The notes beneath the pieces are model-generated. The model was not told the DNA's origin. It worked only from the letters and a program-made list of their open reading frames with translations, and searched no databases. A DNA stretch of 64,000 nt, taken from the sequence record NC_054934.1; one strand, given 5' to 3'. The translations under genes and the position numbers were made by a program. Positions 39,997-48,771 of the stretch are shown piece after piece. The DNA is from Escherichia phage teqskov. Position 1 is the stretch's first letter. Each line of letters opens with the position of its first letter.

Positions 39997-40359
39997 ATGT
40001 ATATTGATAAAAAGTACGAACTTGTTCCAAGACTTATTGATACATTTATTAATTATCGCCCGCGTTCTAATTCATTAATAGTTAAAGCTATTCAAGAAAA
40101 TGGCGGATGGTTTGAAGTTAAAGAAGTTTTCTTTGCTGATGGATTTAAAGTAGTAAAACACGTAGAATGCGCCAATGGAAAGCATTTTTACTTCAACGTC
40201 TGCGAAGATGAATTTCATTGTTTTCGTGAGTATAAAGAACCGACTTCTGAAGATGAAGTCGAAGACAAGGTTTCTGGCGTAACAAAAATTCACTGCATTG
40301 TTGACGAAAACAATGTAGATGAAATCATTGAACTTTTGCGAAAAACTTTCAAAAAGTAG
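39997..40359 (+). CDS. hypothetical protein (120 aa)
   Basis: ATG with GAGGAAAA RBS. Confidence 0.55.
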   Translation: MYIDKKYELVPRLIDTFINYRPRSNSLIVKAIQENGGWFEVKEVFFADGFKVVKHVECANGKHFYFNVCEDEFHCFREYKEPTSEDEVEDKVSGVTKIHCIVDENNVDEIIELLRKTFKK

Positions 40360-40389
40360 TTTACAGAAGGGTAGTAGTGTGATACTATT
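40359..40389 (+). promoter_or_regulatory. early promoter
   Basis: GTTTAC -35 overlapping upstream stop, 19-bp spacer, TGTGATACTAT. Confidence 0.55.
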
Positions 40390-40413
40390 ACCCTATCAAC
40401 TAAGGAGAATAAA

Positions 40414-40656
40414 ATGAGATTACAACGCCAGAGCATCAAAGATTCAGAAGTTAGAGGTAAATGGTATTTTAATATCATCGGTAAAGATTCTGAACTCGTT
40501 GAAAAAGCTGAACGTCTTTTGCGTGATATGGGATGGGAAGATGAATGCGATGGATGCCCTCTTTATGAGGATGGAGAAAGCGCAGGATTCTGGATTTACC
40601 ATTCTGATGTTGATCAGTTTAAAGCTGATTGGAAAACTGTGAAAAAGTCTGTTTGA
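40414..40656 (+). CDS. hypothetical protein (80 aa)
   Basis: ATG with AAGGAG RBS. Confidence 0.5.
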   Translation: MRLQRQSIKDSEVRGKWYFNIIGKDSELVEKAERLLRDMGWEDECDGCPLYEDGESAGFWIYHSDVDQFKADWKTVKKSV

Positions 40657-40666
40657 GGAAAATATT

Positions 40667-40999
40667 ATGTCTGACATTCATGTAACTGGAATTTCTCAAG
40701 TAAACATTCGCTGTCAATTTAAAACTGTACCTGGGGTGACTCATATTACTTTATCACATGACCCATATTCTCGTGGAAGACAGTTAACTGGGGTAATTAA
40801 GTTTTTCGGTGGAATTGGCGGTAATGAATTTACTATAGGCGATGACGAAATTGTTGGCTGTAAATTAAAAGTTCAGAAGGGTGTGCTAGAACTTTTTAAT
40901 GATGAAGTTTTTGATGAAATCTCACAAGCAGTTAACAAAGGAATGGTAACATTAGTTAAAATGATTAAAGCTAGTGGATATGTTCCTGATCCTTTTTAA
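40667..40999 (+). CDS. hypothetical protein (110 aa)
   Basis: ATG with GAGGAAAA RBS. Confidence 0.5.
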   Translation: MSDIHVTGISQVNIRCQFKTVPGVTHITLSHDPYSRGRQLTGVIKFFGGIGGNEFTIGDDEIVGCKLKVQKGVLELFNDEVFDEISQAVNKGMVTLVKMIKASGYVPDPF

Positions 41000-41010
41000 T
41001 AGGAGATAAT

Positions 41011-41840
<830 letters not shown>

Positions 41841-41860
41841 AATAACACGTGGCGGAAAAT

Positions 41861-42208
41861 ATGAATTTTAATTATTACCCTATTCTATTAGAAAAAGACG
41901 CGAAACAACCAAAATGGCAGGGTCCTCAGTTTATTAAAGGCGTCTATCAATTAGTAGTTCCTAAAGACAAGATTTATAGCAGTTGTTTCACTGAATCCGC
42001 TTGTAGTATTTTCGGTAATAGTTCTCCGTATTGGAATTTTGATATAAAGCTTGACAGAAATATCGATATTTGGTTGAAAGCTATGGATATCGGCAATATC
42101 ACGTTTGATGAGAATAATTATCATATTATTGGTCGCTTTTCCAAGCGTGGTAAAGAATTGTATTTTACGCCTGAAATTGAAAGAAAATTTGATGCTAAAC
42201 CGTATTGA
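41861..42208 (+). CDS. hypothetical protein (115 aa) inserted between frd and td
   Basis: ATG at 41861; no recognised motif; frd and td abut in T4 as I recall. Confidence 0.5.
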   Translation: MNFNYYPILLEKDAKQPKWQGPQFIKGVYQLVVPKDKIYSSCFTESACSIFGNSSPYWNFDIKLDRNIDIWLKAMDIGNITFDENNYHIIGRFSKRGKELYFTPEIERKFDAKPY

Positions 42209-42252
42209 TTATTAGCTTCATAAAATGTATTATAATTTATATAAGGTACTAA

Positions 42253-43113
42253 ATGAAACAATACCAAGATTTAATTAAAGACATTTTTGAAAATGGCTAT
42301 GAAACTGATGACCGAACAGGCACAGGAACAATTGCTTTGTTCGGTACTAAATTACGCTGGGATTTAACTAAAGGTTTTCCTGCAGTAACGACTAAGAAGC
42401 TCGCCTGGAATGCATGTATTTCTGAGTTATTGTGGTTCTTATCAGGAAGTACTAACGTAAATGATTTACGTCAACGTACTCATGGATCTTTAATTTCAGG
42501 AAAAACAATTTGGGATGAAAACTACGAAAACCAGGCCAAAGACTTAGGTTATCATAGCGGTGAACTTGGTCCAATTTACGGAAAACAGTGGCGTGATTTT
42601 GGTGGTGTAGATCAAATTGTAGAAGTTGTTAATCGTATTAAAACATTTCCCAACGATAGGCGTCAAATTGTGTCGGCATGGAATCCAGCTGAACTCAAGC
42701 AGATGGCATTACCTCCTTGTCATATGTTCTATCAGTTTAATGTGCGTAACGGATACCTTGACCTCCAATGGTATCAACGTTCGGTAGATGTTTTCCTCGG
42801 TCTTCCATTTAACATCGCGAGTTATGCTGCTCTTTTGCATATTGTTGCTGACATGTGTGAACTAGTTCCGGGCGATTTGGTATTCTCGGGTGGTAATACA
42901 CACATTTATTCTAACCATATTGAGCAATGCAAAGAGATATTAAATAGAACTCCTATGGATCTATGCAAACTCAGTATTAATTGGCCTAATGGATTCAGTC
43001 AATGCGATACTGAAACTCAAATGTATTGGTTAACTGAATATATGACAGCACGGGATTTCGTTCTCAAAGATTATCAGTCCCACGGTGTATTGAAAGGAAA
43101 GATGGCGGTGTAA
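42253..43113 (+). CDS. td: thymidylate synthase (uninterrupted)
   Basis: 286 aa continuous ORF; TS active-site region (PPCH...); no intron. Confidence 0.93.
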   Translation: MKQYQDLIKDIFENGYETDDRTGTGTIALFGTKLRWDLTKGFPAVTTKKLAWNACISELLWFLSGSTNVNDLRQRTHGSLISGKTIWDENYENQAKDLGYHSGELGPIYGKQWRDFGGVDQIVEVVNRIKTFPNDRRQIVSAWNPAELKQMALPPCHMFYQFNVRNGYLDLQWYQRSVDVFLGLPFNIASYAALLHIVADMCELVPGDLVFSGGNTHIYSNHIEQCKEILNRTPMDLCKLSINWPNGFSQCDTETQMYWLTEYMTARDFVLKDYQSHGVLKGKMAV

Positions 43114-43136
43114 TTTTAATTTAATTGAGAGGATAT

Positions 43137-43400
43137 ATGATTTTACGATTTAAGGATACTTCTGGTGTCGTTCTTTTTACACTTCCTAATCCAAGCGAGT
43201 TAGAAGTTCCAGGACCAGAACAGCCTATTATAATTTATGGTAAAAAATATTATACTCATAAAATGACTCGTGAGTATTTTGATAATAAAATTTCTACAGT
43301 TAAAACTTCTTCTGATTGTTATTATGATATTACTGTTTTAACGGAAAAACAATATGACGAATTATTACCACGCGGGCCGTCTATGTCGGGTAGTGAATAA
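43137..43400 (+). CDS. hypothetical protein (87 aa)
   Basis: ATG at 43137 with GAGAGGA RBS. Confidence 0.45.
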
Positions 43401-43680
43401 ATATAAATCCGACTTTGATGTTAATATTCACCGTGGTACATTTTGGGGAAATTACGTCGGTAAAGATGCTGGCAGCCGGGAGGCTGCCATTGAATTATTC
43501 AAAAAAGATTTTATACGTCGAATTAAATCCGGAGAAATAACTAAAGCACATTTAGAGCCTTTACGTGGAATGAGGCTAGGATGCACATGTAAACCAAAGC
43601 CGTGTCATGGTGATATAATAGCTCATATAGTTAACCGATTGTTTAAAGACGATTTTCAAGTTGAGGACTTATGCAATTAA
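43354..43680 (+). CDS. DUF4326-like protein (108 aa)
   Basis: WGNY...[15 protein letters not shown] resembles the GNP/CHA signature I recall for DUF4326; overlaps upstream ORF by 47 nt. Confidence 0.45.
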
Positions 43681-45935
43681 TTAATGTTATCAAAAGTAGT
43701 GGTGTTTCTCAGAGCTTTGACCCGCAAAAAATTATTAAAGTTTTATCTTGGGCAGCCGAAGGAACATCTGTAGATCCTTATGAATTATATGAAAATATTA
43801 AATCATATCTCCGTGATGGAATGACCACTGATGACATTCAAACCATTGTAATTAAGGCTGCTGCGAATTCTATTTCAGTTGAAGAGCCTGATTATCAATA
43901 TGTAGCTGCACGCTGTTTAATGTTTGCTCTTCGTAAGCATGTTTACGGACAATATGAACCACGTTCATTTATTGACCATATTTCTTACTGTGTAAATGAA
44001 GGTAAATATGACCCTGAACTGCTGTCAAAATATTCAGCAGAAGAAATTACATTTTTAGAATCAAAAATTAAGCACGAGCGGGATATGGAATTTACTTATT
44101 CCGGGGCGATGCAATTAAAAGAAAAATATCTCGTTAAAGATAAAACCACTGGTCAAATTTATGAAACTCCGCAGTTTGCATTTATGACTATTGGAATGGC
44201 ATTGCATCAAGATGAACCTGTTGATAGACTAAAACACGTTATTCGTTTTTATGAAGCGGTATCTACTCGACAGATTTCATTACCAACTCCTATTATGGCT
44301 GGCTGTCGTACTCCGACTCGACAGTTTAGTTCATGTGTTGTTATTGAGGCAGGTGATTCGCTGAAGTCTATCAATAAGGCTTCCGCTTCAATTGTTGAAT
44401 ATATCTCCAAACGCGCTGGAATTGGTATTAACGTTGGTATGATTCGTGCCGAAGGTTCTAAGATTGGTACAGGTGAAGTACGTCATACTGGTGTTATTCC
44501 TTTTTGGAAACATTTTCAGACTGCTGTTAAATCATGCTCACAGGGTGGAATTCGTGGCGGCGCTGCTACTGCTTATTATCCTATTTGGCATTTGGAAGTT
44601 GAAAATCTTCTCGTTTTGAAAAATAACAAAGGCGTAGAAGAAAACCGTATTCGTCATATGGATTATGGCGTTCAACTGAATGACCTAATGATGGAACGTT
44701 TTGGAAAGAACGACTACATTACTTTGTTCAGTCCACATGAAATGGGTGGTGAGCTTTATTATTCTTATTTTAAAGACCAAGACCGTTTCCGTGAATTATA
44801 TGAAGCCGCAGAAAAAGACCCTAATATTCGTAAAAAGCGTATTAAAGCCCGTGAACTGTTTGAATTGCTAATGACTGAACGCTCAGGAACAGCAAGGATT
44901 TATGTACAGTTCATTGATAATACGAATAACTATACTCCATTTATTCGTGAAAAGGCACCTATTCGTCAGAGCAACTTGTGTTGTGAAATTGCTATTCCAA
45001 CAAATGACGTGAATAGTCCTGATGCTGAAATTGGATTGTGTACGTTATCTGCATTTGTGTTAGATAACTTTGATTGGCAAGACCAAGATAAAATTAATGA
45101 ATTGGCAGAAGTTCAAGTTCGTGCTCTTGATAATCTTTTGGACTACCAAGGATATCCAGTTCCTGAAGCAGAAAAAGCTAAAAAGCGTCGAAACCTCGGC
45201 GTAGGTGTTACTAACTATGCAGCTTGGCTGGCAAGTAATTTTGCTTCTTATGAAGATGCTAACGATTTAACACATGAACTATTTGAGAGATTGCAGTATG
45301 GACTCATTAAAGCATCCATTAAGCTCGCCAAAGAAAAAGGACCTTGCGAATATTATTCAGACACTCGTTGGTCTCGAGGCGAATTACCTATCGACTGGTA
45401 CAATAAAAAGATTGACCAAATCGCAGCTCCAAAATACGTTTGTGACTGGTCGTCGCTGCGGGAAGACCTTAAGCTCTTTGGCATCCGTAATAGCACATTA
45501 TCAGCACTTATGCCATGTGAGTCATCTTCCCAAGTTTCTAACAGTACAAACGGTATCGAGCCTCCACGTGGACCAGTCTCTGTTAAAGAATCAAAAGAGG
45601 GTTCCTTTAATCAAGTCGTGCCCAATATTGAGCATAACATAGACCTCTATGATTATACGTGGAAATTAGCTAAGAAAGGTAATAAACCTTATCTTACGCA
45701 GGTAGCTATTATGCTGAAATGGGTATGTCAATCAGCTTCAGCGAATACATATTATGACCCGCAGATTTTTCCAAAAGGAAAGGTTCCAATGTCAATAATG
45801 ATTGATGACCTTTTGTATTTTTGGTATTTTGGCGGAAAAAATTTCTATTATCATAATACCCGCGATGGTTCTGGTACTGATGATTATGAAATAGAAACTC
45901 CAAAAGCTGAAGATTGTTCATCCTGTAAATTATGA
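43671..45935 (+). CDS. nrdA: ribonucleotide reductase large subunit NrdA
   Basis: 754 aa (T4 NrdA length); sequence recognised. Confidence 0.93.
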   Translation: MQLINVIKSSGVSQSFDPQKIIKVLSWAAEGTSVDPYELYENIKSYLRDGMTTDDIQTIVIKAAANSISVEEPDYQYVAARCLMFALRKHVYGQYEPRSFIDHISYCVNEGKYDPELLSKYSAEEITFLESKIKHERDMEFTYSGAMQLKEKYLVKDKTTGQIYETPQFAFMTIGMALHQDEPVDRLKHVIRFYEAVSTRQISLPTPIMAGCRTPTRQFSSCVVIEAGDSLKSINKASASIVEYISKRAGIGINVGMIRAEGSKIGTGEVRHTGVIPFWKHFQTAVKSCSQGGIRGGAATAYYPIWHLEVENLLVLKNNKGVEENRIRHMDYGVQLNDLMMERFGKNDYITLFSPHEMGGELYYSYFKDQDRFRELYEAAEKDPNIRKKRIKARELFELLMTERSGTARIYVQFIDNTNNYTPFIREKAPIRQSNLCCEIAIPTNDVNSPDAEIGLCTLSAFVLDNFDWQDQDKINELAEVQVRALDNLLDYQGYPVPEAEKAKKRRNLGVGVTNYAAWLASNFASYEDANDLTHELFERLQYGLIKASIKLAKEKGPCEYYSDTRWSRGELPIDWYNKKIDQIAAPKYVCDWSSLREDLKLFGIRNSTLSALMPCESSSQVSNSTNGIEPPRGPVSVKESKEGSFNQVVPNIEHNIDLYDYTWKLAKKGNKPYLTQVAIMLKWVCQSASANTYYDPQIFPKGKVPMSIMIDDLLYFWYFGGKNFYYHNTRDGSGTDDYEIETPKAEDCSSCKL

Positions 45936-45986
45936 TATAATTTGACTCACGGACGAGTCACTATCTATTAACTAAGCGGAAAATTT

Positions 45987-47156
45987 ATGAGCACAGTTTT
46001 TAATACAAATCCAGTTGATGTTTTAAAAGAACCTATGTTCTTCGGTTCAGGTCTTGGTATTGCGCGTTATGATATTCAACGCCATAAAGTTTTTGAAGAT
46101 TTAACCGAAAAGCAATTATCATTTTTCTGGCGTCCTGAAGAAGTAAACTTGATGATGGATGCTGCACAATTTAACAAGCTTCCTCAGTATCAGCAAGATA
46201 TTTTTACTAATAACCTGAAGTATCAATCACTTCTAGATAGCATTCAGGGTCGTGCACCGTCTGCTGTACTTATGTCATTAATTTCAGATCCAAGCCTTGA
46301 TACATGGGTTGCTACATGGACTTTTAGCGAAACTATTCACAGTCGTTCATATACTCATATCATGCGAAATCTTTATACTGATCCATCAAAGGTATTTGAT
46401 GAGATTGTATTAGATAAAGCTATCATGAAACGTGCTGAATCTATTGGTCGTTATTATGATGACGTTCTAGTTAAGACTCGTGAATATCAGAATGCGGTTG
46501 AAGATTATGAAGGAATTTTATCAGAAGGATTTCGTAAAGAAGAGCTAGGCAAAGTTGTTGAATGTACTAAACGAGCACTAATGAAATCTCTTTACCTCTG
46601 CCTGCACGTAATCAACGCATTGGAAGCTATTCGTTTTTATGTATCTTTCGCATGTACCTTTAACTTCCATAAGAACATGGAAATCATGGAAGGTAATGCC
46701 AAGATTATGAAGTTCATTGCACGTGATGAGCAGCTTCACCTTAAAGGCACCCAATATATTATTCGTCAACTTCAACTTGGCACTGATGGTGATGAATGGG
46801 TTAAAATTGCTCAAGAGTGTGAACAAGAAGCAGTTGATATTTTCATGGAAGTTAACCGTCAAGAAAAAGACTGGGCAGTTCATTTATTTAAAGATGGCGA
46901 TGTTCCTGGATTAAATACAAATAGCATGTGGAGCTTTATTGATTACTTAACTGTATCTCGTATGAAACAGTGTGGTCTTCCATGCCCAATTACTGATGCT
47001 CCGGTTAAACATCCGTATCCTTGGATTCGTGAATATCTTAATTCTGATAATGTTCAATCTGCACCGCAAGAAGTAGAACTGTCATCTTATCTTGTAGCAC
47101 AGATTGATAATGACGTTGATGATAAAGTTATGATGAGTTTTAAAAAATATTTTTAA
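45987..47156 (+). CDS. nrdB: ribonucleotide reductase small subunit NrdB (uninterrupted)
   Basis: 389 aa continuous ORF; no intron or I-TevIII-type ORF. Confidence 0.92.
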   Translation: MSTVFNTNPVDVLKEPMFFGSGLGIARYDIQRHKVFEDLTEKQLSFFWRPEEVNLMMDAAQFNKLPQYQQDIFTNNLKYQSLLDSIQGRAPSAVLMSLISDPSLDTWVATWTFSETIHSRSYTHIMRNLYTDPSKVFDEIVLDKAIMKRAESIGRYYDDVLVKTREYQNAVEDYEGILSEGFRKEELGKVVECTKRALMKSLYLCLHVINALEAIRFYVSFACTFNFHKNMEIMEGNAKIMKFIARDEQLHLKGTQYIIRQLQLGTDGDEWVKIAQECEQEAVDIFMEVNRQEKDWAVHLFKDGDVPGLNTNSMWSFIDYLTVSRMKQCGLPCPITDAPVKHPYPWIREYLNSDNVQSAPQEVELSSYLVAQIDNDVDDKVMMSFKKYF

Positions 47157-47160
47157 GGAG

Positions 47161-47183
47161 TGGGCCGCAAGGCCCATTTTATT
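47161..47183 (+). terminator. rho-independent terminator
   Basis: TGGGCCGCAAGGCCCA followed by TTTTATT, overlapping denA start. Confidence 0.65.

Positions 47184-48771
<1,588 letters not shown>

Follow-up and report, generated by a model that had tools for sequence, protein, structure and literature searches.

The open reading frame at 43354-43680 on the + strand of the window (i.e., the whole stretch of 64,000 nt that was analysed) is almost certainly a real, expressed-type gene, and sequence comparison identifies it as the orthologue of nrdA.1 of phage T4, encoding a stand-alone DUF4326 domain. Both the gene and the family are already known: nrdA.1 is annotated in T4, and computational analyses of the family exist. 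As a whole, the data are best explained by the NrdA.1 identity combined with a cysteine-enzyme mechanism on phosphorylated ribose, a combination that is preferred tentatively, at somewhat less than even confidence. nrdA.1 belongs to those conserved genes of T4, the best-studied phage, that still await a functional assignment. T4 is easily manipulated genetically and the protein has 108 aa, so that T4 nrdA.1 provides a tractable test of the published prediction of phosphate processing on ADP-ribose derivatives.

The features referred to below are the following.

43137..43400, + strand: nrdA.2 (DUF5496), the upstream neighbour, 87 aa from ATG 43137 (Pfam PF17600, E=1.9e-59)
43354..43680, + strand: nrdA.1 CDS, 108 aa, with a single DUF4326 domain at residues 11-90 (ORF list, Pfam, T4 identity, AlphaFold2 model)
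43354..43400, + strand: overlap of nrdA.2 and nrdA.1, 47 nt, out of frame (ORF coordinates; annotated identically in T4 and ime09)
43432..43455, + strand: N-terminal loop R27-G28-T-F-W31-G32-N33-Y34, the 'GNP' motif of the family with Y for P (275 aligned domains)
43573..43614, + strand: Cys-rich loop R74-L-G-C77-T-C79-K-P81-K-P-C84-H85-G86-D87, presumed active or ligand site (conservation, model)
43671..43680, + strand: overlap of the nrdA.1 stop region with the nrdA start codon (ATG 43671), 10 nt (sequence, ORF list, T4 annotation)

Gene identification and gene call

The initial annotation had described a DUF4326-like small protein located upstream of nrdA. The Pfam/HMM check that it had suggested was run, and the DUF4326 match is present and nearly complete. 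DUF4326 (PF14216) matches the protein with 78.7 bits (gathering score 25, E=5.5e-22), residues 11-90 aligning to profile positions 1-81 of 82, and it is the sole Pfam match at E≤1. The protein is assigned to phrog_464 (E=3e-48), a function-unknown group. It is identical (100%) to a protein of phage vB_EcoM_IME339 and shares 97.2% identity with T4 NrdA.1 across all 108 residues. The td-nrdA segment is 99.2% identical to that of Shigella phage Shfl2 and 96-98% identical to those of many Tequatrovirus genomes, and the gene order frd - td - nrdA.2 - nrdA.1 - nrdA - nrdB is annotated in both T4 (NC_000866) and ime09. The source DNA is assigned to Tequatrovirus. Searches of the PADLOC and NCBIfam HMMs with NrdA.1 gave no matches at E≤1. 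No functional study was found in literature searches for nrdA.1, nrdA.2, PF14216, IPR025475, NP_049846 and T4p235, and no mechanism was found in the DUF488 literature.

The nrdA.1 ORF runs on the + strand from ATG 43354 to TAA 43678-43680 (108 codons). Up to the conserved C11 the frame contains no start codon other than ATG 43354, which is therefore the sole start that preserves the whole domain. GTG 43393 was considered as the start and rejected, as the conserved C11-V-V-N strand would be lost. The start codon and both overlaps (47 nt and 10 nt) are identical in the annotations of T4 and phage ime09. The 47-nt overlap with the preceding ORF had been noted before and is correct, nrdA.2 ending at 43400, and so is the location upstream of nrdA, a 754-aa ORF starting with ATG 43671. 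The Shine-Dalgarno-like signal of nrdA.1 is weak, a GGA about 10 nt upstream of ATG 43354, and translation may therefore be partly coupled to nrdA.2. The overlap and the weak ribosome signal are what could be said for a chance ORF, or a mis-called start, without function. That reading is refuted by the conservation data and retains a negligible probability: the protein is conserved from 100% down to about 30% identity in about 1,945 phage genomes with its motifs invariant, the Pfam match spans the full length, and the AlphaFold model is confident.

Every gene from frd through nrdB lies on the + strand, with tight packing or overlaps. Promoter-like and terminator-like sites occur at the frequency found in shuffled sequence, i.e., at the chance rate; between td and nrdA there is neither a terminator nor a promoter-like site. 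No Rfam family was matched in 40000-48000. For nrdA.2, the ORF list begins at TTG 43125 (43125-43400, + strand), and the PF17600 profile begins at residue 5 of that ORF. ATG 43137, which follows a GAGG, yields a product of 87 aa, as in the annotations of T4 and ime09.

Family size and distribution

The DUF4326 family is very large and covers phages, archaeal viruses and giant viruses. Starting from the single sequence, 72 close relatives of NrdA.1 were identified. With a profile of 29 relatives, 7,582 of the 8,000 candidates examined were matched at E≤0.001, and an exhaustive profile search of 1.84 billion cluster representatives (50%-identity clusters) gave 14,409 at E≤0.001 and 3,407 at E≤1e-10. 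By tblastn, NrdA.1 matches were present in 1,945 of 50,697 phage records, namely in T4-like phages of many hosts, jumbo phages, Kuttervirus, Justusliebigvirus, and Pseudomonas and Vibrio phages. The fold matches in BFVD were all DUF4326 proteins, including those of Pandoravirus, Pithovirus, Marseillevirus and haloarchaeal viruses.

Conserved residues and structure model

Both motifs quoted in the initial annotation are found in the protein: WGN is W31-G32-N33 at 43444-43452, and the second motif starts with C77 and occupies 43582-43620. In the translation, F-W-G-N-Y spans residues 30-34 and the stretch around the second motif residues 76-89. The GNP and CHA signatures given there for the family are essentially correct. 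The G-N and C-H pairs are invariant, while NrdA.1 itself has GNY for the consensus GNP and CHG for CHA. The third position of the former is a tyrosine (Y34) here and in close Tequatrovirus relatives and a proline in most other DUF4326 proteins; the CH(A/G) motif is C84-H85-G86 in NrdA.1. Across 275 aligned domains, N33, C77, C84 and H85 are conserved in 100%, C79 and P81 in 99%, R27 in 97%, G32 and G86 in 96%, and D87 in 95%. The conservation of the N-terminal loop (R27, G32, N33) was reproduced in two further alignments. This pattern of polar and Cys residues in two loops suggests an active or ligand-binding site rather than a scaffold.

Structure prediction, likewise suggested at the outset, was performed with AlphaFold2. 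A model made without an alignment (pLDDT 49) was discarded, and an alignment of 91 sequences was used instead, giving a pLDDT of 89.3 and a pTM of 0.82. Residues 61-90, the Cys loop among them, reach block means of about 96-97. The modelled elements are a strand at 12-15, short strands at about 23-29, helices at 42-59 and 64-70, a strand at 74-77 and a helix at 85-96. In the model, C77 stands at the end of strand 74-77, C79 and P81 lie within the loop that follows (78-84), and C84-H85 cap helix 85-96. At C77, the NrdA.1 model has a strand-end cysteine leading into a loop and a helix, the arrangement of the active site in the rhodanese-phosphatase fold. The best structural neighbour of the model is RapZ-C.

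Possible relationship to RapZ-C and DUF488

A 'RapZ-C-DUF488-DUF4326 clade' is said to have been defined by Burroughs and Aravind in 2023 (NAR Genom Bioinform). DUF4326 has been placed in the rhodanese-phosphatase superfamily, with a predicted role in the processing of terminal ribose phosphates on ADPr or its breakdown products (Iyer, Burroughs, Aravind et al., PMC9503650). Among 148 diverse DUF4326 proteins, 27 matched PF22751 ('Active DUF488-N3 subclade') below threshold, the best of them at E=0.0017. Apart from fused domains and seven weak Acanthaporin matches, which are attributed to Cys-rich composition, this was the only recurrent cross-family match in the 148 proteins, and its recurrence is judged to be far above chance for one family among 24,736. 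NrdA.1 of the source phage itself gave no PF22751 match at E≤1.

E. coli RapZ carries PF22740, and YeaO matches the 'inactive' DUF488-N3i model. DUF4326 profiles aligned by hhalign with E. coli RapZ, RapZ-C and YeaO gave no significant result (probability <1% for RapZ-C and YeaO), and neither did an alignment of 121 YeaO sequences (probability <1%). The latter is shallow (Neff 2.2) because the homologues found were close YeaO relatives only (70-98% identity). In the non-significant hhalign alignment, the RapZ-C stretch IGCTGGKHRSVYIAEQL is colinear with the Cys-loop stretch of NrdA.1, and the RapZ-C loop IGCTGGKHRS lines up with the Cys loop. Searching PDB chains by sequence and by profile gave no match below E=0.4, and Foldseek gave none in the PDB. 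Membership of the RapZ-C/DUF488/DUF4326 clade is plausible and backed by the literature, and is weakly verified here.

Domain fusions

Fused domains were sought with Pfam in the 43 longest representatives and then in all 148. Among the 148, DUF4326 is fused to SLOG domains of the YAcAr (6), mSLOG (5-6) and DprA-like (5-7) types, to NADAR in three, to Macro in one and to TIR in one. Fusions to a family A DNA polymerase, to RNase H and to a T7-type RNA polymerase are single cases, and tandem DUF4326 repeats also occur among the representatives. The SLOG, NADAR, Macro and TIR fusions had been reported earlier (Iyer, Burroughs, Aravind et al.; PMC9503650, PMC7824862); they suggest that the substrates come from NAD+/ADP-ribose or nucleotides. 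A minority of the fusions connect the domain with nucleic-acid enzymes. The 43 longest of the 148 representatives showed no fusion to domains of ribonucleotide reductase (RNR), thioredoxin or glutaredoxin.

Some of the metagenomic proteins may be gene-calling artefacts. These are P0131 (352 aa), P0139 and P0196, with two to three tandem DUF4326 domains, and P0248, a family A DNA polymerase that carries DUF4326 between its 3'-5' exonuclease domain and its polymerase domain.

Genomic neighbourhood

Co-occurrence with nrd genes, a further check named in the initial annotation, was examined at 80 IMG/VR loci and stands for the enterobacterial and Acinetobacter T4-like phages and a few other loci; it is mostly lineage synteny and does not extend to the family as a whole. 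The nrdA.1 homologue lies between td and nrdA, usually abutting nrdA, in all 38 of the 38 enterobacterial and Acinetobacter T4-like loci. The DUF4326 gene follows nrdB directly in the Slopekvirus-like Klebsiella phage PhiK2046 (L056), lies between the anaerobic reductase genes nrdD and nrdG in a jumbo Asteriusvirus unrelated to T4 (L070), and precedes a 1,223-aa RNR-barrel protein in L052. In T4-like phages of Aeromonas (L043-L050) it stands directly after td and abuts denA/rnlA, with nrdA and nrdB not within 10 kb. In Kuttervirus it lies between a recombination nuclease gene and regB in a context without RNR, and no RNR was found near the gene in Justusliebigvirus and Eneladusvirus. In about 27 of the 34 remaining (non-Tevenvirinae) loci, no RNR was detected within 10 kb. 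Pfam analysis of 104 immediate neighbours showed no dominant partner: DUF6945 occurred four times, NAMPT, PhoH, Thg1 and Clp protease twice each, and RNR, IMPDH/GMP reductase and DUF488 once each. With these RNR-free loci and no dominant neighbour, the nrd adjacency is mainly inherited synteny of the Straboviridae and has perhaps recurred twice independently. It hints at nucleotide metabolism in general rather than at an RNR subunit.

NrdA.1 is, as judged from its sequence, not an RNR subunit; in the Pfam search (E≤1) it has no similarity to the RNR domains, i.e., ATP-cone, all-alpha and barrel. It could still be an RNR accessory that uses its cysteines to assist NrdAB or NrdDG in redox reactions, maturation or regulation. 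The three invariant cysteines would suit such a role, as would the position directly upstream of nrdA with a 10-nt overlap in the 38 T4-like loci, next to nrdB in PhiK2046, between nrdD and nrdG in the unrelated Asteriusvirus and beside the RNR-barrel protein in L052. This role is nevertheless very unlikely. The T4-like phages of Aeromonas keep the gene after td with neither nrdA nor nrdB within 10 kb, most of the non-Tevenvirinae loci (about 27 of 34) and the Kuttervirus, Justusliebigvirus and Eneladusvirus contexts are without RNR, the domain resembles no RNR domain, and the 43 longest representatives carry no RNR, thioredoxin or glutaredoxin fusion. nrdA.2 (DUF5496) was considered as an obligate partner and rejected, since it stands beside DUF4326 mainly in the closest Tequatrovirus loci; by tblastn it was found there in L001 and L005-L009 at 94-98% identity, with one weak match of 33% in L031.

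PHROG 24867 and some GenBank records label DUF4326 proteins 'NrdA-like'. Examples are 'ribonucleotide reductase NrdA-like' in phage VEcB (L088:3495-3881; phrog_24867) and 'putative NrdA protein' in phage pEa_SNUABM_12 (L089:3480-3785); these two proteins have no similarity to RNR and no RNR neighbour. Such labels appear to be annotation drift from the gene name nrdA.1. The annotation 'DUF4326 domain protein NrdA.1' is suggested in place of 'NrdA-like ribonucleotide reductase'. In Aeromonas phage avDM2 the DUF4326 gene is unannotated and occupies the gap between td and denA (OP380605.1 105751-106041; L090:3501-3791). The order at this locus is frd-td-DUF4326-denA-rnlA, without nrdA or nrdB.

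Proposed function

The proposal is that NrdA.1 is a small enzyme with an alpha/beta structure and belongs, within the rhodanese-phosphatase fold, to the RapZ-C / DUF488 / DUF4326 branch. Its pocket would lie at the C-terminal ends of the strands, formed by the loop R27..W31-G32-N33 and the loop C77-x-C79-x-P81-x-x-C84-H85-G86-D87, and would bind a phosphorylated ribose moiety. An invariant cysteine, located at a strand end or helix N-cap as in cysteine phosphatases, would then attack, and phosphate would be removed or transferred. A small NAD+/ADP-ribose- or nucleotide-derived molecule would be the likely substrate, with a nucleic-acid end as a further possibility. Translation of nrdA.1 in T4-like phages would proceed from the tightly packed + strand array together with frd, td, nrdA and nrdB. 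The analogy of the site to those of cysteine phosphatases, rhodaneses and RapZ-C, together with the fusion partners, would make the binding of phosphorylated ribose most likely. That NrdA.1 is a small Cys-based enzyme acting on phosphorylated ribose or nucleotide-derived molecules is, as a mechanism drawn from these analogies, possible rather than probable.

Several points speak against a phosphatase-type mechanism. The canonical CX5R signature is absent, the loop C-x-C-x-P-x-x-C-H being without arginine; the hhalign comparisons with RapZ-C, YeaO and the shallow YeaO alignment are not significant; and three Cys and one His within nine residues could bind a metal instead. The last point leads to a non-catalytic ligand binder, a sensor or sponge, possibly zinc-stabilised, in which C77, C79, C84 and H85 would hold a metal or shape the pocket, and the pocket would sequester a sugar-phosphate or nucleotide-derived signal without turnover. 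RapZ-C, nearest to NrdA.1 in structure, binds ligands such as GlcN6P as well as RNA and is not known to be an enzyme. Phage sponges soak up immune signals, and NrdA.1 is very small (108 aa), like known phage sponges. The invariance of all three Cys and the His within nine residues and the fusions of the family to signal-related SLOG and TIR domains would also agree with a binder. It is still judged rather unlikely, as C84 and H85 are adjacent and neighbouring residues rarely coordinate one metal ion, the invariant N33, R27 and D87 are more typical of catalysis, and Pfam splits DUF488 into 'active' and 'inactive' subclades, of which DUF4326 cross-matches the active one.

Nucleic acids come into question as targets if NrdA.1 processes or modifies ends, acting on phosphate or ribose at DNA or RNA termini in replication, repair or anti-restriction, and not on free small molecules. 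The fusions to RNase H, to a T7-like RNA polymerase and to a family A DNA polymerase, where DUF4326 separates the exonuclease from the polymerase domain, point in this direction. In other phages the neighbours include Thg1 tRNA-His guanylyltransferase, a nucleotidyltransferase, an N4 DNA methyltransferase, PhoH and a gp46/47-like recombination nuclease, and denA, rnlA and pseT lie within a few genes of it in T4-like phages. DUF4326 was also predicted earlier to be an enzymatic bridge between NAD-utilising systems and DNA modification (PMC7824862). Against this, the polymerase fusions are single metagenome gene calls and possibly read-through artefacts, and the domains fused recurrently (SLOG, NADAR, Macro) handle nucleotide-derived small molecules; end processing is considered unlikely.

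A wider and quite speculative reading is that DUF4326 may be a new kind of small Cys enzyme, found in viruses of bacteria, archaea and eukaryotes, that destroys or remodels a phosphorylated NAD+/ADP-ribose derivative. If so, the target could be, for example, an immune signal or a toxic ADPr-phosphate, and the family would serve in pan-viral counter-defence or nucleotide salvage. Its repeated recruitment beside class Ia/III RNR genes (T4-likes, Slopekvirus, Asteriusvirus) might then protect or feed the nucleotide-precursor pathway.

Comparison with known systems

Of the related domains, RapZ-C (PF22740; PDB 5o5q, 5o5s) is the nearest structural neighbour of NrdA.1, with the hhalign alignment not significant. 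DUF488 (PF22751) resembles DUF4326 in size and in the order of secondary-structure elements, while E. coli YeaO, of the inactive DUF488-N3i type, is without the DUF4326 cysteines. The cysteine phosphatases and rhodaneses (PTP, DUSP, PTEN, Cdc25, rhodanese) differ from NrdA.1 in several respects. Their CX5R signature is absent from it, the loop C77-T-C-K-P-K-P-C84-H-G-D having no Arg at +6 of C77 or C79; there are no Pfam cross-matches from DUF4326, and the fold similarity is not significant. The NrdA.1 domain (about 90 aa) is also much smaller. NADAR (YbiA, PF08719) has no sequence match to DUF4326 and is a fusion partner from a separate family. Elsewhere DUF4326 occurs in tandem repeats or fused to SLOG, NADAR, Macro or TIR, whereas in NrdA.1 it stands alone.

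The region differs from T4 outside the gene. The td gene of T4 has a group I intron with I-TevI, whereas td of the source phage (42253-43113) is uninterrupted. T4 has mobE and nrdB.1 between nrdA and nrdB; the spacer of the source phage (45935-45987) contains neither, and its nrdB (45987-47156) is uninterrupted, in contrast to T4. A 119-aa ORF at 41849-42208 (+ strand) between frd and td (phrog_1928, E=9.5e-36; no Pfam match) is an insertion relative to T4, because frd and td overlap directly there; ime09 carries the same extra gene. Immediately upstream of frd, and overlapping its longest reading frame, lies an 81-aa ORF (41011-41256, + strand); Pfam gave no match for this ORF, and its counterpart in ime09 is an unnamed hypothetical gene. 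nrdA.1 itself is close to that of T4 (NP_049846.1, T4p235, 'hypothetical protein'), which occupies the same position between nrdA.2 and nrdA and differs by few substitutions.
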